The translations under genes and the position numbers were made by a program. A DNA stretch of 64,000 nucleotides. It comes from Calditrichaceae bacterium (GTDB lineage Bacteria > Calditrichota > Calditrichia > Calditrichales > JBFXGD01). The notes below the pieces were generated by a model. That model had not been told where the DNA came from. It did not search any database and saw nothing but the letters and a program-made list of their open reading frames with translations. Positions 2,216 through 12,667 of the stretch are shown here, piece by piece. The DNA lies in contig JBFXLE010000015.1 of assembly GCA_050173015.1 (NCBI GenBank), positions 31,463 through 95,462 of the forward strand, given 5' to 3'. How positions within the stretch are numbered: the stretch's first letter is position 1; every line of letters begins with the position of its first letter.

Positions 2216-2665
2216 TTAAATTCCGTGACAATTTGTTCCTGTATCCCCGCATGAGCTTGATGGTCTCGCAAGCGAATTCTCACCGCTATGGCATTTATTG
2301 CACGTGGTAACCGATTCATTTAGAACACCTTTAACAAACTGGCCATGAAAAACAGGACCCGCGAGTGTCCAGCCGCTCGGATGAGGATAACTCGCTCTCG
2401 GGTAATCTTTATGACAATCCACACAGAATGTTCCCGCTTCCGCAGACAGGATATTTTCTCCGTGACATGATTTACAGGAAACCGCCCCTGCTTCAGCCAC
2501 TTTATTCGAATGGAAAACTTCGGCCTTGATTACGGCATTATCTCTAATCGTTACTTCGCTCCAGCCATCAGGGTGCGTAACACTGACAACCGGTGAAGTA
2601 TCTTCCGAACAGGCCATAAGTCCGAGAACAAATAAAAACATGACTAAGTATCCAAAAACTTTCAT
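2216..2665 (-). CDS. Small multiheme c-type cytochrome lipoprotein (3 CxxCH plus a possible CX6CH)
   Basis: Lipobox LMAC; CKSCH, CVDCH, CNKCH; C-terminal CGDTGTNCH; repeated HPxGW. Confidence 0.8.
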   Translation of the reverse strand: MKVFGYLVMFLFVLGLMACSEDTSPVVSVTHPDGWSEVTIRDNAVIKAEVFHSNKVAEAGAVSCKSCHGENILSAEAGTFCVDCHKDYPRASYPHPSGWTLAGPVFHGQFVKGVLNESVTTCNKCHSGENSLARPSSSCGDTGTNCHGI

Positions 2666-2709
2666 CTCACTATTCCTTCATTAATAATTATTATGATTTG
2701 CTTTATCAA

Positions 2710-5487
2710 CTAAATTTTATACCCAAACAAGACCGAATAAATGATTAATAGAATCAGGATAATTCCTATGGAAAGGAACGTAAATCCCAACACATTAATA
2801 AACCGTTCCCTGCGTTTCGATATGTACTCTTTTACGACGATCTTCTTTAACGCGCCGCTCTTTTTAAGTTCAGCATAATCTTCGGGACGATCCTTCATAT
2901 ATTCCTCAACGGGCACAAGTCCCGTAAAAATAACCTTATCCATCGGGAAGGCTTCGGGTCTAAGGTGTGTGTTAAAAAAATGAATGGTAAAAATAAACCC
3001 TACCGCCAGCAACGCCTCATCACTATGAATAATCGTGGCCACATTAATCAGCCAGCCCGGGAAAAATTTTGTAAAAAATTCGGGGAACCATAGCATCAAA
3101 CCCGATAAGCCGATCACCGCCACCCCCCAAAAAACAGCAAAATAGTCAAATTTTTCCCAGTATGTCCATTTACCATAATCCGGTCTTTCTCCCTTCCCCA
3201 GAAACCATTTGACTGTTCGCCAAAAATCGACGGCGTCTTTTTTGTTGAACATCATGGAATCACGCCCGAATATAAAATCTTTCCAGGGGGTTTTACGGCT
3301 CATCTTTCTTTTAAATAACTGATAAAGATGACTTGTAAAATAACCCGCCGTCAATATTGCCGCGAATCGATGAATCCATCCTGCCGCCTCTACACCGCCG
3401 ATCATTTTCGCCAGGTATCCGGCCCAGGGCATTCCCGAAAACTTTAGCATCATACCGGTCAGCGCTAACAGGATAAAACTGATAATTACAAATATATGCG
3501 TGAGTCTTTGTGAAAATTCAAAGCGCCGTATGTAATATCTTGTCTGCGGCTCTTTTTGCTTTTTCTTTCTCTCTCTCAAATGGCGAAACGAACGGGGAAG
3601 CCACAGAAGCGTATGTATTCCAAAAAATCCGAAAACACTCACAAGCAGGATTGTCATTGCCCAGTAGGTGTAATAAAGGATTGGATATTTTACCGGGTCA
3701 TGATGCGTGGCATGGGTCAGATATCCGGTAAAGCGCTGATTAGCGTCATCATGACATTTTTGACAGGTCGAAACAATATGATGCATCCCGACACTGGAAT
3801 TCGGATCGTTAATACCAAAAATAAGATGAGAATTATGACAGTCGGAACATTTAGCCGATTTAAGATAACCAAGCTGATAAGTTTTTCCATGCATGGTCTG
3901 CAAATAAGTTTCGGAAAGTTCTCTATGGCAGGTTCCGCATTGATCCGTCACCTCGGTCATAAACTGATCTTTCTCCACCTCGGTGATCTTGTGTGAAGAA
4001 TGACACTGTGTGCATGTCGGGAGCTTTTCCATTTCCCTCTCATCCACTGAAAAATGAATGCTCTTTGTGTAATCCTTATAGATCCCTCTATGACAGGTGG
4101 CGCAAGTCGCCGGAATATTTTTGGGGTGGACCGATGAACGGGTATCCTCGTGATTAAGCTCCATATGCGCGGTATGACAATCCGTGCAAACCGCGCTCGG
4201 CAAAAGTCCCTTTTCGGTAAGGCCCCTGCCGTGAACGCTTTTTGAGTAATCGAATAACGCGTTCGTCTCAGATAAATGTCTGGTCTCTTCCAGACTACTG
4301 TCTGAACGATGGCATCCCCCGCACAATTTCGGGATCGCCGCCCTGTAAGTATTGGATGTTTCATCCAGTGATGATTTTGTATCATGATATCCATGGCAGG
4401 CAATACAGTATGGCACATGCCCGTTTCCCTGCTTATAACCTTTCCCGTGCCCGCTGGCCGCGTATTCTTCGCCTATTTTAATATGGCAGCTTGAACAATC
4501 CACGGGACCGACTGTTTTACAGGGGCGTTCCAATTGCGGATTAACATCAGAATGGCATTTTACGCAGGTCACTTCATTGTGAACCGATTCAGAGATAGTA
4601 GTCTTAGAGACCTGCAGGCTGACAATTTCACCATCTTTGAGTTTATGGATATTTTGATTGTCATGGCATTTAAGACACGATCTGTCAGATACTTTTAAGG
4701 TTAATGATTCCTTGCGCGCTTTATGAGGTAGATGGCAATCGGTGCAGGCCGGGATTGATCCCGGATCGCTGCTCCATTTTTCACCTTCAATTACTTTTAC
4801 ATGAACATCCTCGATACGGCTGTGACATTTCATGCAGGTGGACGCTATATTCCTTGGCGAAATTGAGGATTTGGTATTGGTATGAGGCAGAATAAAGTGA
4901 CTTCTATGACAATCGGCGCACGCGGCGCTGACGATCAATCCTTTTTTAAATAAACCTTCTCCGTGAATACTCAAGCTGTAGTTTTCGAGAATATTATGTT
5001 CTGTGATATTATAAACACGGGCCACCGGGGCGCCTTCCCGGTGACATTTACCGCAAAGAAAAGGAATGTTCATTTTATAAGACGGAGATTTTGGATTCTC
5101 CGGTGAGAGGATATCATGTTTTCCATGACATTCACTGCAATTCGGAGCATAGATTTCTTTTTGTTTTAGCGCCAGGCCGTGAATCCCCGAATCGAATTCA
5201 AGCTGAATATCATCATGACAATCACCACAATGGACAGGATTTAGCCGTTCCGGATGCGGAAACTCTTCCACATCCGCGTCGGGATGACAACTTGCACACT
5301 CCACTCCTTTATGCACAGAATTTTTAAGATCAGAAGGATTGATATAAAGGGAAACCATCCTGTTTCCGCGCTGAACAGTTAGCTCGGGATCAGAATGACA
5401 TTCAAGGCAGGTTTCGTCATCGACAGCATATAGATTACTGCCGGCTAACAGCATTAATAATGTCAGCCAGATTTTCATCATATTCAT
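2710..5487 (-). CDS. Multiheme cytochrome c (19 CxxCH) fused to a cytochrome b membrane domain; CbcL/CbcA-like quinol oxidoreductase
   Basis: Signal peptide and 19 CxxCH counted by hand, then TM helices with [35 protein letters not shown] and IHFFNTH. Start chosen at MNMMK; the ORF track starts at 5508. Confidence 0.85.
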
Positions 5488-5618
5488 CCATAGTACTCTG
5501 GAACACAATTGCTACATTTATAAAAATCCGGTTGCCGGTCCAAAAAATTTCCCTTCTCCGAAGACAGAAAATTCAAATGCCATTTTGGAATTGGAGCGGC
5601 AACCGGTTAATAAATACC

Positions 5619-7541
5619 CTAAATTTTGGGTTGATGTGAATTGTCTTTTTGCTCCATCAGCTTTTCATACTCAAGCGGATGATGATGTTTCATTTCATCC
5701 AAAGTAATTTTCCCATCCATCCAGGTGGTACTCATCGGATATTTTTCAGGATGAAGAATAACAAAAAACCAGTGCCAGATTACGATCGCCAGAGTAGCCA
5801 GCCATGCTTCGTAATAATGAATCACCTCCGATGTTTCAAATAACCAGGTTGGGAGAAAACCGATAAAAAATTCAGGGAACCACAACACCAGACCGCTTGC
5901 CCCCATCACAATCACACCCCATATCAAAGCAAGATATTCCGCTTTCTCGGCATAATCGAATCGACCAAAGCGAGGTCGCTCCTTGCTCAATCCCAGATAA
6001 AAAGAAATATTTTTCCATAATCCGATCACATCATCCAGTGTCGGCATTAATTCTATTAATTCTCTTCGTCCTTTCTGAGTAAACAGAAGATATCCCAGTT
6101 GAACCACTGAGATTGTACCCATAACAACCGCCGCGACTCTGTGGGTTACGGATCGTATGGCCTCTGTCATACCGAGTGAAACAAGTAGTTTTACCCAGCC
6201 CGCTTCCGGAAATTTCAGCGCGAAGCCTGTAATCGCCAGCAAGGTGAAACTAAGAAACATCAACATGTGCTGATAAACTTCGAACGACTGAAATCTCGGC
6301 ACTCGCTCAGCATACTTATCAGCTTTTCTTTTTTCACGGATATGATGCACAAGGATGATCAGATTGTGGATAAACATTCCGCCGATCACAACAACAATCA
6401 TCCATATATATAAGTTTTTAAAAAAGAAGGCGATAGGATTTCTGACCTGCTGATTTATCGGATGCACATCAATTTTAACAAAACTTTCCGAAATATTCGC
6501 GTGACATTTGCCGCATGTTTCCTGCAGATGCGCGGGATGAACACTCGCCAGACTATCCGATTTTGATTTGATCGCGTGTGTTTCATGGCAGCTTGTACAG
6601 GTTGCCGCTTCAGGAGATCCCTTTAGCGCGGCCAATCCGTGATAACTTTTCATATAGGAATCAAGTCGCTCAGCATCCAATCCAAACCTCGACATGAGTG
6701 TTGGAGAAGAATGACAGCTGGCGCATAGTTTCGTGGACTGAAGAAGACCGCTGGTCGTCGCGTTTTTATCTGATGCCATCTTTATATCGTGTTCACCGTG
6801 ACAGTCTGTACAAACCGGTGATTCTCCATGCCCACGCTGCAATGAATTCCAATGAATACTGTCATGATATTCATCTTTTTCACTTTCATGACAAGTACCG
6901 CATGTCTCCGGTATGTTCAGGGCGTTCAAATGTGATTCAGGATTGATGGCCGGTAAGATCGCATGATAATCATGACAATCCGTACAGGTTGCCACCTCTG
7001 CCTCGGGATCTTCGGTAATCATTTTCCCGTGAACACTTTCAAGATAACTTGCAACCGGATTCACGTTTCTTCTGCCGAACAGACGAATAACTTCCGGCTT
7101 GGCGTGACAAGACGCGCATGTATAGGCCAGGTTTCCATGATGGACTTTCGACTCCGTCTCATCAGAACTCAGAATATCATGAACCCCATGACAATCCGTA
7201 CATTTTGCGGCTGCCTCCGAACCCTTTGCCAACGCCTGTCCGTGAATGCTCCGGTTGTATTCTTCCTGGGCATCCTCATGACATGTGGCACAATTCACAG
7301 GGGTAAGAATCTCTTCATGAGGCAATTCTTCGATACCCTGATGACAATCGATACACTCAAATCCACCGTGAATGGAATTCTCGAAATTTTCCGCATGTAC
7401 AAAAACAGAAACTTCCGTAGTGTCATTAATCATCCTTGTCAGATCCGGATCGCTGTGGCATTCCATACAATCTTCGTTGGACTGTCCAAAAGCAAACACC
7501 GCGGCTGCGAATAGCAATAATAATACTCGTTTCAAAAGCAT
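5619..7541 (-). CDS. Multiheme cytochrome c (11 CxxCH) fused to a cytochrome b membrane domain; CbcL-like
   Basis: Signal peptide and 11 CxxCH; membrane domain with YQH, THRVAA, YAEKAEYLALIWG, IHYYEAWLA and WHWFF. ATG at 7541 follows GAGGAA. Confidence 0.85.
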   Translation of the reverse strand: MLLKRVLLLLFAAAVFAFGQSNEDCMECHSDPDLTRMINDTTEVSVFVHAENFENSIHGGFECIDCHQGIEELPHEEILTPVNCATCHEDAQEEYNRSIHGQALAKGSEAAAKCTDCHGVHDILSSDETESKVHHGNLAYTCASCHAKPEVIRLFGRRNVNPVASYLESVHGKMITEDPEAEVATCTDCHDYHAILPAINPESHLNALNIPETCGTCHESEKDEYHDSIHWNSLQRGHGESPVCTDCHGEHDIKMASDKNATTSGLLQSTKLCASCHSSPTLMSRFGLDAERLDSYMKSYHGLAALKGSPEAATCTSCHETHAIKSKSDSLASVHPAHLQETCGKCHANISESFVKIDVHPINQQVRNPIAFFFKNLYIWMIVVVIGGMFIHNLIILVHHIREKRKADKYAERVPRFQSFEVYQHMLMFLSFTLLAITGFALKFPEAGWVKLLVSLGMTEAIRSVTHRVAAVVMGTISVVQLGYLLFTQKGRRELIELMPTLDDVIGLWKNISFYLGLSKERPRFGRFDYAEKAEYLALIWGVIVMGASGLVLWFPEFFIGFLPTWLFETSEVIHYYEAWLATLAIVIWHWFFVILHPEKYPMSTTWMDGKITLDEMKHHHPLEYEKLMEQKDNSHQPKI

Positions 7542-7551
7542 TAATTCCTCA

Positions 7552-8439
7552 CTACTTTCCATGACAGGTGACACAAACTATATCCGTATAAGCATCATTG
7601 TGACAACTCATACAATTATCAAAATCAGACCGCCCGGCTCTCGCGTGCCTGCCACCGTTACCCGGTACCGTGTTTGACCAGTTTGCAAAAGCATGATTTT
7701 GAGGCATGACTCTCTCGGCCTGATGGCAGTCGATACAGAATGAGAATTCTTCGTGACAGGTTAAGCAATTCTCTTTATTTCCTTTAGCCTGCATTCCGTG
7801 AGTCTGCCTGAAATTAAGCGGATGTACCTCGCGATTCAAATTATCACCTTCATGACATGTAGTGCAATAATTATTCTGATGACAGTGATTGCAGGAAGTC
7901 GTCTGTGACATCATACCATGATCTTTTTTCCAGTTAAGCCGGTGAGTCTCCGGTACAAATTTCATTTCCGATTCATGACAGGTTAGACATGCCTGCTTAT
8001 TCTCACTGTAGTCCTGATTTTCATGGCAATTCGCGCAGACCTGACTATCAGGTATATGCAGGGTACCGACCTTTTCTTTTTTATCAATCCCCTGGTGGCA
8101 GGTCTGACAGTTTACTTTACCTGAGACATGTGTCTTGTGTGGAAATTTGCTCCCATAATCCACAACACGCTGAGCAATACCCGGTTCATCCGGATTCGTG
8201 TGGCACATTGCGCATTCTACTTCATCCGGACTATGGCAACTGTTGCAGGTCTCCATTGCCGGAAGCAAATTATCCGCCTGCGAAAGACTGCTATTCGCGT
8301 TGGCATGACAATCTGTGCAGGCCGCGCCGACATCTTCCGCATGTAATTGATGCGAGAAAATAATCTGATCCGGAGCCTGCGCATTGGCAAAACCGGTCAG
8401 ACAGAACAATACTATGGTTATAAATGATAAGCCTTTCAT
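7552..8439 (-). CDS. Periplasmic dodecaheme cytochrome c (cytochrome c3-like)
   Basis: Signal peptide (ANA), FSHxxH and FPHxxH motifs, 12 CxxCH. Confidence 0.9.
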   Translation of the reverse strand: MKGLSFITIVLFCLTGFANAQAPDQIIFSHQLHAEDVGAACTDCHANANSSLSQADNLLPAMETCNSCHSPDEVECAMCHTNPDEPGIAQRVVDYGSKFPHKTHVSGKVNCQTCHQGIDKKEKVGTLHIPDSQVCANCHENQDYSENKQACLTCHESEMKFVPETHRLNWKKDHGMMSQTTSCNHCHQNNYCTTCHEGDNLNREVHPLNFRQTHGMQAKGNKENCLTCHEEFSFCIDCHQAERVMPQNHAFANWSNTVPGNGGRHARAGRSDFDNCMSCHNDAYTDIVCVTCHGK

Positions 8440-8452
8440 ACGACAGCACCTT

Positions 8453-9649
8453 TTACCAAATGAAATGAATATGGTTTAATATACGTTGATCCGAGTCTTT
8501 CTCCCGGTTTGTCAGCCACTGATATTCCAGATCAGCGCTCCAGTTCTTTGAGAAACTATATGACGCTCTGACCGCGTTTGCCAGCTGATCTTCGTAATCA
8601 TATACTTCTTCATAACGGTATTGTGAATAGTCCACACTGAGAGAAGCCAGAAGCTTTGGTGTGACCTGGTATCCATAATCAACCGTTACGCCTGTTTGAT
8701 CACCCAGATCACCGGTTTCAAAAATAAATCCCAGCGTTCCATTGGAATTATTCAGCGTCAGCAGTACCCGCTGCGCGTCTCCGTCTTCCAATTGAAGAAA
8801 CTGATATTCCGCGCCAAGATAGTATTCGTCTGTCAGCGCATAGGAACCGTTAAACGCGCTTAAAGTATAGGATTCCACGTCAAAGATACGGAAATAGGAA
8901 TCGCCGTAAATTTGCGGATGCTGCTGCTTAAAGTATAGATTCGCGCTAAATTTATCAGACATCCGGTATCTTCCCGACACATAGAAACGATGCAAACGGT
9001 CATTTACCAGATCATAATGAGTCTGCAACATAATTTTCAGGTTGTTAACTGATGAGTTGTATAAATTCAGCCCGGCGATTTGCCACTGCGTTTCCCCGGA
9101 ATGCGTTTTTTGAAGATATACGCCCTGAATGTCCGTGTCATAAAAATTTTTATATTTCAGAGCCGTCCCGTAAACAGCCGCGTCGTCGGATTCGTAGATC
9201 TCAAAAGCTTTGTTAAAGTGAGATTCGACACCGCCATATAACTGCCATTCCACGTTCCTGATCGGACGGAAAATCATATTCAGACCATCAATACTCCCCA
9301 GAACCAATCCGGGATGCAGAAATTGCCTTCCTAATTCGAAGTCCATCAGATTATTAAACAATCCCTTGCCGGAGATGGACATACGGTAAGCGTTAAATCT
9401 TCTTTCATCCGCAAGATCTTCATCAAGATCGGTGAGAATCCGGCCTGACATATTAAATCTGAGATCCCCCCACTCCTTCAGCCCGGCCTGAAAACGGACA
9501 GTCTGATACAAACGGGTATGTGATGTGGTATCTTCGTATGAATATACTGTATTCGAAATACGTCCGTTTGTCTGAATACCCTGGGCAAAAAGATTCAATG
9601 CAAGAAAACCCAGTACCATAATGCTAGTTAAAACAATTTTCGTTTTCAT
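8453..9649 (-). CDS. Outer-membrane beta-barrel (porin of a porin-cytochrome complex)
   Basis: Signal peptide; Tyr/Gly-rich alternating beta-strand pattern; GRQ motif; C-terminal aromatic HIHFIW; flanked by multiheme cytochromes. Confidence 0.75.
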   Translation of the reverse strand: MKTKIVLTSIMVLGFLALNLFAQGIQTNGRISNTVYSYEDTTSHTRLYQTVRFQAGLKEWGDLRFNMSGRILTDLDEDLADERRFNAYRMSISGKGLFNNLMDFELGRQFLHPGLVLGSIDGLNMIFRPIRNVEWQLYGGVESHFNKAFEIYESDDAAVYGTALKYKNFYDTDIQGVYLQKTHSGETQWQIAGLNLYNSSVNNLKIMLQTHYDLVNDRLHRFYVSGRYRMSDKFSANLYFKQQHPQIYGDSYFRIFDVESYTLSAFNGSYALTDEYYLGAEYQFLQLEDGDAQRVLLTLNNSNGTLGFIFETGDLGDQTGVTVDYGYQVTPKLLASLSVDYSQYRYEEVYDYEDQLANAVRASYSFSKNWSADLEYQWLTNREKDSDQRILNHIHFIW

Positions 9650-9671
9650 AACTCTACTCTTATGATTAGGT

Positions 9672-9704
9672 AAAAAGAGGCGGATTCAAAATAAAATCCG
9701 CCTC
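9672..9704 (-). terminator. Intra-operon terminator-like hairpin
   Basis: GAGGCGGATT/AATCCGCCTC inverted repeat followed by a U-run on the minus strand. Confidence 0.6.
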
Positions 9705-9720
9705 CGGATTGGCTTAACAC

Positions 9721-11112
9721 TTATCTTTTTTGAACGACAACATTTTGATTTGCCGCTTTTTCCTGGTCTAAAAATTGCTGGAGACTTGGATCGCTCACAC
9801 CAATTGTCAGAGAATCTTCACGCAGGAAATATTTATCGCTGTTTCCAAGGAAAGTTCCAACGTTATGACAGGTTCCTCTACCGCAGGATACGCCGCCGGT
9901 TGTGTCTGTCATAACCGTCCAACGCCTTATATTATGGGGCGTGGCGTATTTCCAGGTCGGTTCCGCGGTAAAATTAGCAAGCGAAATACTGCCACCCCAA
10001 TTGTCATAGGTGTCCGGAACAATCGGAATATGTCTGACCGGAGCGAAATCGTATGGGCGGGTGGCGCTTTTAAGATAATTTTTACCAATTTTAAAGGTGA
10101 GATAAGATGACCCGGTGATGCCGGCACCGTCAACATGACAGCCATTGCAATTCTTGTAGGCTTGAGAATGGCAGGTCTGGCATGATAATTTTGATCCATT
10201 TCCAGACCAATGCTGATTGTGATAAGCATTTGAAGTAGCTACGTCAGCATGACAGTCTTCGCACTTGGCGGTGATCGGTGAATCTTCAATATAACGATAA
10301 TCATACTGATTACCGTCGCCGTGCATTTCGTGGCCGTCGTGACATAACATACAATCATATCCTTTGGCGGAATGGACATCCATGTAGATTCCTTTATCAC
10401 TGTGAGCCCCGGTATATTCTTCCCCAACACGTGAGCCGTGACACGCGGTACAATTGCTTGTCTGATTTGGCGTTCTTCTGAATGCATGTCCTGATACCAG
10501 ACCACCATTGACCGAGCGCGGTTTACTGATGTGGCATTCGCCGCAGGTGGCGTGACATTTCGCGCAGTCTTTCGTAAAACCCGCGACCATCGCGTCATCA
10601 GTTCTGAGATCCATTCCACCCGATCGCACTTCAAATCTCTGGTGATAGCCTTCCTGAGTGAGATGCAAACTTGTTTCAAAATTTGACACTTGCTGCGAAT
10701 GGCAGGGACCACAATAGGTCTCAGCATCTGTTAAAGACGGATATGGCACTAAATTATTGTGCGCGTCCGTTTTGGTAAATTCTTCAGGATTACCTTTATG
10801 GCAAGCGGTACACCCTAGATTCCCGTGTGTGGAAGTAAGAAATTCGGTTTTTACAAAAACACGTTCCCATGCCTCAACCTGAGGCACTGTGCCGCCTCAG
10901 CCCTCGCCGGATTCACCGCCGGTATCGGGAAGAGGATCGGCAACCTTGATAAGTAAATCTTTGTCTGTATGACAGCTGACACAACTGGTTTCATCCACAG
11001 AAGCGAATTTCTTCGTTTCTACCGGATATTTTTCTTCACATGCTGTCATCCATGTGACCGCGAAAACGAAGAGGACAAGAAGAACAATTTTTCTAAACAT
11101 GACCTTATCCAT
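9721..11112 (-). CDS. Probable selenocysteine-containing multiheme cytochrome c lipoprotein (463 aa; Sec72; 10 CxxCH plus CX4CH)
   Basis: ORFs 10897-11112 and 9721-10887 share a frame and are separated only by TGA-GGC-GGC-ACA (ESGEG*GGTVPQVEAWERV). The upstream part supplies the only signal peptide/lipobox (MTAC) and CVSCH. A SECIS-like hairpin follows the TGA. Confidence 0.85.
10869..10887 (-). promoter_or_regulatory. Putative bacterial SECIS element
   Basis: mRNA GUGCCUCA-GGU-UGAGGCAU forms an 8-bp stem starting 10 nt after the UGA, with a G-containing apical loop resembling the E. coli fdhF SECIS upper hairpin (GCAGGUCUGC). Confidence 0.75.
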
Positions 11113-11149
11113 TTTTTGTGTTTATATAAATAGTTAGTTTAATCATAGC

Positions 11150-11185
11150 AAAAAACAAACCAGGCTCATCACCTGAGCCCGGTTT
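11150..11185 (-). terminator. Intra-operon terminator-like hairpin after the rhodanese gene
   Basis: AAACC-GGGCTCA...TGAGCCT-GGTTT on the minus strand, followed by a U-run. Confidence 0.55.
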
Positions 11186-11223
11186 ATACAACATTTATAA
11201 TTAAGAAAGATCAAACACCCATC

Positions 11224-12261
11224 TTATGGATTAACTCCGGTTGTTACCGGGTAGTCATGACCGGTTGCTTCGCTGAATGGCGCTACTCCGCCTCTTGCCG
11301 CTGTGCTCTTTGTCCATGACATGATGCCATGTTTTAAATTGACAGCATTATATCCAAGAAGATTCAAGGCCGTAGTAGCGATACCACCGGTATGCCCTGT
11401 ATAACAATATACAACAAGGAGGCGAGTCGGATCAATCTTTTTTAAATTATCTTCACTGGCGATTTCTTTCCAGGGAATATTAATCGCGCCCGGAATATGA
11501 CCGATAGCATAATGGTCAGCGGAACGTACGCTTATGATCTGTGGATCATTACTGGTATCACCATCATTGATCACTCCATGAAGAACATCCGCATTGTAAG
11601 TTGCAGACCCTAGTGATGCATAAAGATCAGCTGCCGCCAGCATAATTTCATCAGCATTTGTTGATGAACTGAATTCCGGATTAGCCAGTTCATATGTTGA
11701 GGATGCATTAATTGTTGTTTCAATTTCATAATCAAAACTGGTCGCTTCACTGAACGGCGCTACTCCGCCTCTTGCCGCTTCATCTTTGGTCCAGTCCATA
11801 ATACCAAACTTTAGATTGTAAGCGTCATAACCAAGCGCGCGCAAGATCGTTGTCGCGACACCACCGGTATGGCCAGTATAACAATAAACGGCGATTTTTC
11901 CATTATTCGGGATCGCGGCGATTCTCGCGTCAAGAGCTGCAAGTTTTTCAGTTTTCGCGATATCCCTCCAGTTGATATTGATCGCGCCCGGTATATGCCC
12001 GGCTTCATAATGAGCAGCGCTTCTGACACTGACTACCACATAATTGTTTGAATCATCACCATCATTAATATTGTCATACAAAACCTGAGCTGTCATGATA
12101 GGAGTAACAGCTACATTTACGCTAGCGTCCACAATCGGCTGGAGTACATCAAAATCACTTGTAACCGTGCTGCTGCCGCCGTCATCGCTGTCATCAGAAC
12201 AACCGATAAACATGGCAAACATTAGAGCAAAAATGAAGTACATTAATTTTTTTACCAACAT
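11224..12261 (-). CDS. Tandem rhodanese-domain (sulfurtransferase) lipoprotein
   Basis: Lipobox FIGC; two copies of SVRS..HY..GHIPGAINI and two active-site loops VYCYTGHTG. Confidence 0.9.
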   Translation of the reverse strand: MLVKKLMYFIFALMFAMFIGCSDDSDDGGSSTVTSDFDVLQPIVDASVNVAVTPIMTAQVLYDNINDGDDSNNYVVVSVRSAAHYEAGHIPGAININWRDIAKTEKLAALDARIAAIPNNGKIAVYCYTGHTGGVATTILRALGYDAYNLKFGIMDWTKDEAARGGVAPFSEATSFDYEIETTINASSTYELANPEFSSSTNADEIMLAAADLYASLGSATYNADVLHGVINDGDTSNDPQIISVRSADHYAIGHIPGAINIPWKEIASEDNLKKIDPTRLLVVYCYTGHTGGIATTALNLLGYNAVNLKHGIMSWTKSTAARGGVAPFSEATGHDYPVTTGVNP

Positions 12262-12353
12262 GATAAACCCCTCGCAATTAAAAAGTTAATATTAAAAATA
12301 ATGGAATAAGGCTCTTTTCTCCCTCCCCCTTGTGAAATTATTATCTTTATTGA

Positions 12354-12370
12354 TGCAAAGGGTGTGCCAA
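12354..12370 (-). promoter_or_regulatory. Sigma54 (-24/-12) promoter of the cytochrome operon
   Basis: Minus strand reads TTGGCAC-ACCCT-TTGCA, an exact match to the TGGCAC-N5-TTGCA consensus, about 90 bp upstream of the rhodanese ATG. Confidence 0.85.
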
Positions 12371-12444
12371 CCAGCAAAGCCTTAGTGAGTACCGTTAACT
12401 TTCTGTTTTGTTCTCGTGAAAAGCGCGGCTCAACAAAGGCATAT

Positions 12445-12558
12445 TGAAACAAAATGGTTCACACTTTCTTAAGTTGATTGATAAATATGGGGTTTTCCGA
12501 TGCAACCAAAGCTTGAAACAAACTGTTTCAAAATGCTACTTGAAACGGTTTTTGAAAC
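12445..12558. promoter_or_regulatory. Putative upstream activator (enhancer) sites
   Basis: Perfect palindrome TTGAAACA-aac-TGTTTCAA (12513-12531), imperfect copy TGAAACA-aaa-TGGTTCA (12445-12461), and TTGAAAC half-sites at 12540 and 12552. Confidence 0.55.
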
Positions 12559-12667
12559 ACAGGAATAACTATTCACCATCAATGAGTTCAACTGGTACGT
12601 GAAGTGGCATGGATTTTTGATTTTCTGTATATTTCACGGCATATCTACTATCATAAAGTGATTTAAA

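Follow-up and report, generated by a model that had tools for sequence, protein, structure and literature searches.

We analyzed a window of 64,000 nucleotides (nt) from a Calditrichaceae bacterium (GenBank assembly GCA_050173015.1, contig JBFXLE010000015.1, positions 31,463 to 95,462 of the forward strand) that contains, on its minus strand at positions 2216-12261, a cluster of seven head-to-tail, co-directional genes for a rhodanese, multi-haem cytochromes, and an outer-membrane barrel. The gene positions, strand, and order agree with those given in an earlier reading of the same DNA made from the sequence alone (hereafter, the original prediction). In transcription order, the genes, with the selenocysteine (Sec) codon of the second gene and its bacterial Sec insertion sequence (SECIS) hairpin, are as follows:

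11224..12261, minus strand: tandem-rhodanese lipoprotein (345 aa); two PF00581 domains, E = 4.4e-35; lipobox FIGC
9721..11112, minus strand: Sec-containing multi-haem lipoprotein cytochrome (463 aa); 10 CxxCH motifs and one CX4CH motif; Sec72; lipobox MTAC
10897..10899, minus strand: UGA Sec codon, codon 72, in G-E-G-U-G-G; conserved in relatives
10869..10887, minus strand: bacterial SECIS hairpin; 8-bp stem, apical loop G-(G/U)-U, the loop starting 17 nt after the UGA
8453..9649, minus strand: 22-strand outer-membrane beta-barrel (398 aa); from an AlphaFold2 model and Foldseek
7552..8439, minus strand: periplasmic 12-haem cytochrome (295 aa); signal peptide without a lipobox
5619..7574, minus strand: 11-haem c domain fused to a cytochrome b membrane domain (651 residues); PF01292; start uncertain (GTG 7574, ATG 7562, or ATG 7541)
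2710..5508, minus strand: 19-haem c domain fused to a cytochrome b membrane domain (932 residues); PF01292; start uncertain (TTG 5508 or ATG 5487)
2216..2665, minus strand: 3-haem lipoprotein (149 aa); lipobox LMAC; weak ExtS match, E = 0.0064

The seven products carry 0, 10, 0, 12, 11, 19, and 3 canonical CxxCH motifs, respectively, so that the recount (10+12+11+19+3) reproduces the total of 55 given previously. On the cluster strand, 54 of these motifs fall within stop-to-stop frames of at least 100 aa, and the 55th lies in a 71-aa piece ahead of the in-frame TGA of the second gene; all other frames of at least 100 aa in the window (20,802 aa) contain none. Pfam searches matched five of the seven products to multi-haem cytochrome families. 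The same searches, run on the window proteins, detected no molybdopterin enzyme in or adjoining the cluster, as the original prediction had stated for the catalytic subunit.

Read with TGA as Sec, the second gene encodes a 463-residue lipoprotein with U72 in the G-E-G-U-G-G motif. Translation table 11 instead yields a 388-aa open reading frame (ORF) behind the TGA that retains nine CxxCH motifs but has no export signal and would therefore not be viable as a c-type cytochrome. A single scan of species-representative genomes identified 338 relatives of the Sec cytochrome, of which 80 loci were kept for counts. The Sec position is occupied by TGA in 76 of the 80 loci, in a G-x-G-U-G-G context, and by a Cys codon (TGY) in two; of the remaining two loci, one is truncated at the locus boundary and the other has no such motif. 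In the hairpin downstream of the UGA, the G and the last U of the apical loop are invariant, and the structure agrees with the published model of the bacterial SECIS, which calls for a small apical loop containing G followed by G or U and located 16-37 nt downstream of the UGA (PMC13188914). Across 75 distinct sequences, 82% of the cells of the stem are paired, compared with 68.6 +/- 0.9% in shuffles (0 of 500 as high) and 36-53% in slid controls with the partners shifted by 1-3 columns; covariation amounts to 0.349 vs 0.131, and double-change cells number 57 where 15.9 are expected. The same genome encodes tRNA-Sec (69.2 bits), SelB (362), SelA (516), and two SelD proteins (405 and 371), all above the respective cut-offs. 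The codon is unchanged in contigs of four sequencing runs from four studies, one of these runs possibly representing the source sample.

The in-frame TGA is a genuine Sec codon, and the selenoprotein status proposed in the original prediction is borne out by codon conservation, the covarying SECIS, and the presence of the decoding machinery. Public annotations call only the part behind the TGA: the protein database contains 1771 homologues at E = 0.001 or better, and among the best 120 listed, 118 cover no more than 84% of the query, their gene calls thus beginning behind the TGA; the two that are full length are a Cys form (P0130, GEGCGG) and a form without the motif. Such records would suit a true stop or a sequencing error that leaves the gene split or dead, a reading to which we assign virtually no probability: TGA as a stop is ruled out by SECIS covariation and by conservation of the codon, which loci from many phyla share (76 of 80, two others having Cys), and the Sec machinery, the missing export signal of the shorter ORF, and the recurrence of the codon in four studies likewise speak against it.

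Several side observations concern Sec use and annotation. Of the two SelD genes, one, located outside the window (G000:C2:247845-248780), contains an in-frame TGA, and this SelD is itself probably a selenoprotein. Of the two Cys loci, L027 has no adjoining rhodanese gene, and the rhodanese matches in L024 are weak and split; it may be that Sec and the rhodanese partner are lost together. Matches resembling ExtM at 125-270 bits, below the cut-off of the family model, several of them with one in-frame TGA, were found in Desulfobacterota genomes (G109, G288, G141, G338, G314, G072, G033, G229, G170, G258, G139, and G336), and further unannotated Sec cytochromes may exist in the ExtM lineage, possibly with Sec at other positions. 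Five truncated cytochrome homologues of ~360 aa (P0156, P0159, P0216, P0225, and P0238) bear the JGI name "thiosulfate/3-mercaptopyruvate sulfurtransferase", a label probably carried over from the neighboring rhodanese.

In the 75 distinct Sec forms, the ten CxxCH motifs, an eleventh motif of the form C410-x(3-4)-C415-H416, ten non-motif histidines, and Sec itself are all invariant; the lipobox Cys is present in 73 of the 75, and there is no other non-motif cysteine. The count of ten CxxCH motifs in the original prediction stands, but the protein has an additional invariant haem site, C410-x4-C415-H416 in the window, that had not been counted. Given eleven haem sites and only ten spare histidines, Sec might ligate or overlie one of the haems, a counting argument rather than a structural one. 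Sec lies in a ~45-residue loop inserted between haems 1 and 2.

Comparison of the family with known cytochromes identified ExtM (NF040943) as a true homologue (hhalign, 99.4%, E = 2.1e-21); the 219 aligned columns start at the lipobox, include haem 1, and extend to the CEDCH motif. ExtM is a 12-haem lipoprotein whose gene comes right behind that of ExtKL in Geobacter-type clusters. The alignment has a gap exactly at the Sec loop, and ExtM is ~150 residues longer. The NF040943 model weakly matches 25 of 42 family members, and the window protein scores 37 bits, short of the equivalog cut-off of 800; the Sec cytochrome is thus an ExtM homologue with an inserted Sec loop, a relative and not a member of NF040943. 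For ExtM itself, we found no function beyond the family name. ExtKL, or MccSep, a polysulfide reductase that combines Sec with haems and also reduces selenite (PMC13510729), was considered as a possible family and ruled out: none of the 42 members matches the ExtKL model (NF040886) at E = 0.01 or better, whereas a true ExtKL scores 582 bits, hhalign gives 65% over 108 columns of haem motifs only, and the Sec sites do not align.

Among solved structures, the family profile best matched the octahaem cytochrome c of Shewanella oneidensis (1sp3, E = 5.8e-8), which is cited as octahaem tetrathionate reductase (OTR) in PMC5317091. The structural model of the Sec cytochrome (mean predicted local distance difference test score, pLDDT, 78.6) likewise placed 1sp3 first in VIA-align (Z = 8.2, root mean square deviation 4.6 A over 267 residues, 18% identity; next row Z = 4.1). 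Foldseek of the model against the PDB returned nothing at E = 0.001 or better, and a single-sequence phmmer search of the PDB returned only cytochrome c7 at E = 0.4 or worse. The model of the tetrathionate reductase family octahaem cytochromes, TIGR04315, weakly matches 2 of the 42 members (best E = 5.8e-4), and Pfam matches to MtrC/MtrF domain II/IV reach 35 bits. The link to OTR thus emerged only from the profile search and VIA-align. Taken together, the Sec cytochrome appears to be distantly related to the Shewanella octahaem tetrathionate reductase, and its kinship to ExtM and 1sp3 suggests that it belongs to a catalytic lineage tied to sulfur and selenium chemistry.

The constant neighbor of the Sec cytochrome is the tandem rhodanese. 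Rhodaneses are carriers of sulfane sulfur, and in this one the lipobox Cys21 and the active-site residues Cys127 and Cys286 are invariant in 41 of 41 aligned partners. It is not an equivalog of ExtH, scoring 23.5 bits against a cut-off of 200. A same-strand rhodanese gene lies within 1.2 kb of the Sec cytochrome gene in 75 of the 80 loci (upstream in 12, downstream in 63); with at least 1.3 kb of flank on both sides, the pair is found in 60 of 62 loci, the exceptions being L027, a Cys form, and L078. The complete genome of a member of the same order (G407) contains the whole gene set together with G-E-G-U-G-G. At a threshold of E = 1e-30, the Sec cytochrome was detected in 39 of 86 genomes of Calditrichota, and record titles of relatives also name KSB1, Neomarinimicrobiota, Gemmatimonadetes, Krumholzibacteriota, and Thermodesulfobacteriota; the closest public record (94% identity) comes from a Calditrichaceae metagenome-assembled genome. 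Complex prediction for the mature rhodanese with residues 76-463 of the Sec cytochrome, which leave out the Sec loop, gave a median of 0.42 compared with 0.40 for the control, a difference that favors neither binding nor its absence.

Other genes were noticed next to the pair in individual loci. A formylglycine-generating-enzyme-like (FGE-sulfatase) gene lies nearby in L040 (12637-13461) and L058 (15733-16665). In L050 (6341-7771) and L051 (6889-8352), neither of which has a cytochrome conduit, the genes ahead of the pair encode an outer-membrane transporter of the FadL/TodX type and an esterase; speculatively, this transporter could be the route for a hydrophobic substrate.

The remaining genes encode the parts of a conduit. 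As expected in the original prediction, the product of 8453-9649 folds as a beta-barrel: the AlphaFold2 model, built with 39 homologues, has 22 strands (mean pLDDT 86.4, predicted template modeling score 0.75), and Foldseek matched it to the FimD usher, OccAB, and AlgE barrels at E of about 1e-9. The protein has no Pfam or NCBIfam family, and none of its 134 homologues is usefully named. As in systems of the Mtr or porin-cytochrome conduit (Pcc) type, the barrel is encoded in conserved synteny with cytochromes, namely the periplasmic 12-haem protein and two lipoproteins. Both membrane fusions, with PF01292 scores of 57.4 bits (11-haem protein, ~5 C-terminal hydrophobic helices) and 34.0 bits (19-haem protein, C-terminal hydrophobic helices) against a cut-off of 30.1, combine a multi-haem c domain with a cytochrome b membrane domain, the CbcL-type architecture, and are predicted to oxidize quinol.

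Among the 55 loci with at least 5 kb downstream, tblastn with the window proteins, which misses divergent conduits, found the barrel in 30, the 12-haem cytochrome in 34, and the 3-haem lipoprotein in 27. The co-occurrence of rhodanese and Sec cytochrome with the other genes on which the original prediction rested is thus seen elsewhere, most consistently for the pair. In two Thermodesulfobacteriota loci, L040 and L047, the pair is directly preceded by an MtrA-like decahaem cytochrome and an MtrB/PioB porin (PF11854), a family to which the window barrel does not belong and that was found beside the pair in these two loci only; here, the Sec cytochrome occupies the position of MtrC in the mtr operon. 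The place of the 3-haem lipoprotein gene varies: it comes last in the window, after both cytochrome b fusions, and directly after the 12-haem gene in G407 and most loci.

Four additional features bear on expression:

12354..12369, minus strand: sigma-54 -24/-12 promoter, TGGCACaccctTTGCA; the sole TGGCAC-N5-TTGCW match in the window
12435..12559, no strand assigned: TGTTTCAA / TTGAAACA direct and inverted repeats (repeat families D1, D3, and I2-I4)
11155..11187, minus strand: terminator-like hairpin between the rhodanese and Sec cytochrome genes; 14-bp stem and T-run
9676..9705, minus strand: terminator-like hairpin between the Sec cytochrome and barrel genes; 12-bp stem and T-run

The promoter, located ~90 nt ahead of the rhodanese start, is a perfect consensus match where 0.04 would be expected by chance in the window, and it supports the sigma-54 promoter of the original prediction; that it drives all seven genes as one transcript is less certain in view of the predicted hairpins at 11187-11155 and 9705-9676. 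A similar element accompanies the cluster copy in G407, and in 13 of the 80 related loci a relaxed -24/-12 pattern precedes whichever gene of the pair comes first, at a distance of no more than ~130 nt. The TGTTTCAA/TTGAAACA repeats, 70-190 nt upstream of the element, are candidate sites for an enhancer-binding protein. Pfam searches of the window proteins found no regulator, and hence no cognate enhancer-binding protein gene, in or beside the cluster; genes with PAS, sigma-54 activator, and HTH_8 domains flank the pair in three of 13 loci examined (L021, L032, and L093). The hairpins after genes 1 and 2 may raise the ratio of the enzyme pair to the conduit or split the unit. The genes flanking the cluster encode transketolase halves, a PIG-L deacetylase, an MmgE/PrpD protein, and an isocitrate/isopropylmalate dehydrogenase (Pfam).

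We cautiously favor, at a little better than even, the interpretation of the cluster as a quinol-fed outer-membrane reductase of sulfane sulfur, with elemental sulfur (S0) or polysulfide, and perhaps selenite or tetrathionate, as substrate. In this scheme, the two CbcL-like fusion proteins would take electrons from menaquinol, and the periplasmic 12-haem cytochrome would pass them through the 22-strand barrel to the 3-haem lipoprotein and the Sec cytochrome as the recipients beyond it. The terminal enzyme would be the pair itself, that is, the tandem-rhodanese lipoprotein with its two catalytic cysteines and the ExtM/OTR-related Sec lipoprotein cytochrome. The rhodanese would load sulfane sulfur from S0 or polysulfide as a Cys-persulfide and present it to its partner, the Sec72 selenolate would attack the S-S bond, and the haems would reduce the Se-S adduct with release of sulfide, a sequence of attack and haem-delivered electrons borrowed by analogy from MccSep. 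Selenite or tetrathionate might be side or alternative substrates, and expression would be controlled by sigma-54 and an enhancer-binding protein. The analysis itself establishes the component genes, Sec decoding, family kinship, and conservation of the neighborhood; the substrate, the direction of electron flow, exposure at the surface, and rhodanese-cytochrome contact are inferred.

Several observations weigh against this interpretation. In 25 of the 55 loci with at least 5 kb downstream, tblastn found no homologue of the barrel, and in several of the 13 loci examined with Pfam the pair has no cytochrome or porin neighbor at all; the conduit therefore appears to be optional. The internal terminator-like hairpins imply that the seven genes may not form one transcript. 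No RNA sequencing run with the locus was found. The Sec loop (residues 65-73) has a pLDDT below 50, and its position relative to the haems is thus not fixed by the model. To our knowledge, sorting of lipoproteins to the cell surface has not been established for Calditrichota. The cluster lipoproteins start with C-SDDSDD, C-EEK, and C-SED, and most partner rhodaneses with C-S/G-DDD; these starts are acidic but lie outside the K-(D/E)2 or Q-A-(D/E)2 consensus of the Bacteroidetes export signal (PMC5080379), so that this signal, unproven in Calditrichota, was rejected as proof of exposure and offers a hint only. Finally, Caldithrix abyssi encodes a barrel homologue, and according to its genome paper the organism respired neither S0 nor thiosulfate when H2 or acetate was the donor, reducing them to sulfide only while fermenting peptone (PMC5317091). 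Because sulfide formation was confined to fermentation, an electron sink fits better than energy-conserving respiration; the observation thus backs the favored interpretation and limits it at the same time. The paper contains neither "rhodanese" nor "selen" (0 times each) and does not mention the cluster (PMC5317091).

An extension of the sulfane sulfur reductase interpretation, which we consider unlikely, joins the haem count to the gene pairing. Sec72 would be the missing sixth ligand of the eleventh haem, forming a natural His/selenolate c-type haem, and would leave the iron to attack the sulfane sulfur of the rhodanese persulfide. On the cell surface, the two lipoproteins would jointly make up a composite Sec/Cys/haem active site that reduces solid S0 directly and needs no molybdopterin enzyme, and across many uncultured phyla this module would have been coupled to two or more unrelated outer-membrane conduits.

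The same parts could also run in reverse, the rhodanese and Sec cytochrome oxidizing sulfide, S0, thiosulfate, or metal sulfides at the surface of the cell and the electrons moving inward by way of the barrel cytochromes and the cytochrome b fusions to the quinone pool. Porin-cytochrome conduits and quinol/quinone cytochrome b modules are in principle reversible, and the kinship to 1sp3 can be read in this direction, as can the likening of MccSep by its authors to the reverse of thiosulfate oxidation by TsdA and SoxAX (PMC13510729). We nevertheless regard reverse running as improbable: the characterized Sec-haem enzyme, MccSep, works reductively (PMC13510729), the cultured relative lives anaerobically by fermentation and nitrate reduction and converts S0 to sulfide (PMC5317091), and Pfam searches of the window proteins detected no terminal oxidase or Sox genes in the neighborhood.

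A general conduit for extracellular electron transfer to Fe(III)/Mn(IV) minerals or electrodes, with the Sec cytochrome in an MtrC-like role and the rhodanese as an accessory, would account for the placement of the Sec cytochrome after MtrA/MtrB-type genes in L040 and L047 and for its Pfam matches to MtrC/MtrF domains; in addition, Geobacter strains that keep only extHIJKL still partly reduce Fe and Mn oxides (PMC6148476). Plain electron transfer, however, needs neither a Sec invariant in 75 of 75 sequences nor an invariant two-Cys rhodanese neighbor, and the pair often occurs without conduit genes, so that this possibility, too, carries a low probability in our estimate.

We place a still smaller probability on selenium or tellurium oxyanions, or arsenic, as the true substrates of what would be a selenite/tellurite reductase or a detoxification system. 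In favor of this reading, ExtM, the nearest relative that has a name, carries an annotation that assigns it to a "selenite/tellurite reduction operon", extI deletion impairs selenite and tellurite reduction (PMC5877670), and MccSep accepts selenite. MccSep prefers polysulfide, however, with a fivefold lower K0.5 and a sevenfold higher Vmax/K0.5 (PMC13510729). The proposed substrates also fit poorly with a sulfane sulfur carrier as the fixed partner and with the marine and sediment habitats suggested by record titles and run labels, where selenium is scarce relative to sulfur.

The cluster may explain the unexplained S0 reduction of C. abyssi, and the favored interpretation as a sulfane sulfur reductase is open to bench testing because G407 carries the whole cluster and cultured C. 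abyssi carries at least a homologue of the barrel. Because gene callers halt at the UGA, public records keep a fragment without the signal peptide, and metagenome surveys of sulfur cycling and extracellular electron transfer see neither the lipid anchor nor the first haem nor the proposed catalytic residue. The kind of system, Sec and haem combined with a rhodanese and a porin, is known from Geobacter. Our literature search found no paper describing this Sec cytochrome family, which supplements may list, and the Sec loop, the fixed pairing with a tandem rhodanese, and the two unrelated conduits were likewise not found in print. The available part of a May 2026 selenoproteome review lists three cytochrome-type selenoproteins, namely ExtKL, the GSU2204 family, and the OTR family.

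Compared with known systems, the conduit part resembles the Mtr/Pcc type in that a barrel, a periplasmic multi-haem cytochrome, and lipoprotein cytochromes are encoded together; it differs in a barrel of no family with 22 predicted strands and in a terminal partner that is a Sec enzyme with a rhodanese instead of the decahaem MtrC/OmcA. The concept of a rhodanese feeding a reductase is shared with the Sud/PsrABC system of Wolinella, in which a carrier of the rhodanese type supplies a respiratory reductase with sulfane sulfur, and with SbdP of Aquifex, a rhodanese that is said to supply sulfur to a sulfur reductase; those reductases are molybdopterin enzymes, whereas here the partner would be a Sec-haem protein. 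On the quinol side, CbcL of Geobacter is a menaquinol oxidase with a periplasmic multi-haem c domain and a dihaem cytochrome b domain (PMC9129911), and both fusion proteins share this domain architecture; the likeness is one of architecture, with 11 and 19 haems compared with 9 and two copies in one cluster. No other solved structure matches the Sec cytochrome as well in structure and sequence as the octahaem cytochrome 1sp3, itself a multi-haem enzyme that acts catalytically on a sulfur compound; the Sec cytochrome exceeds it by three haem motifs and is further set apart by its lipid anchor and by an N-terminal extension comprising haem 1, the Sec loop, and haem 2.

The parallel to the ext cluster of Geobacter, which joins a rhodanese lipoprotein and a barrel to ExtKL (PMC6148476), was drawn in the original prediction and holds for the kinds of parts. 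The extHIJKL(MNOPQS) cluster of Geobacter sulfurreducens likewise combines a rhodanese lipoprotein, a barrel, a Sec multi-haem cytochrome, lipoprotein cytochromes, and a cytochrome b. We compared the window with one Geobacter-type cluster, its proteins labeled by family models. The parallel fails for the proteins themselves, as the Sec cytochrome is not ExtKL (0 of 42 members; hhalign, 65%), the barrel is unrelated to ExtI (hhalign, 0.2%), and the rhodanese shares only the domain with ExtH. The promoter here is of the sigma-54 type, whereas a LysR regulator is reported beside ext clusters (PMC6148476).

MccSep offers the closest functional comparison. Before August 2026, no haem-selenium sulfur reductase was known, and MccSep, which according to its authors occurs mainly in Desulfobacterota and Nitrospirota (PMC13510729), is now the sole characterized one. 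It is a soluble periplasmic protein with five haems, a haem-ligating Cys239, and Sec325 in a D-G-U-P loop of its C-terminal immunoglobulin-like domain (PMC13510729). The cytochrome in the window, by contrast, is a lipoprotein with 11 haem motifs, no spare Cys for haem ligation, and Sec in an inserted N-terminal G-E-G-U-G-G loop. The locus points to a second, independent pairing of selenocysteine with multi-haem cytochromes, in an ExtM/OTR-like lineage.

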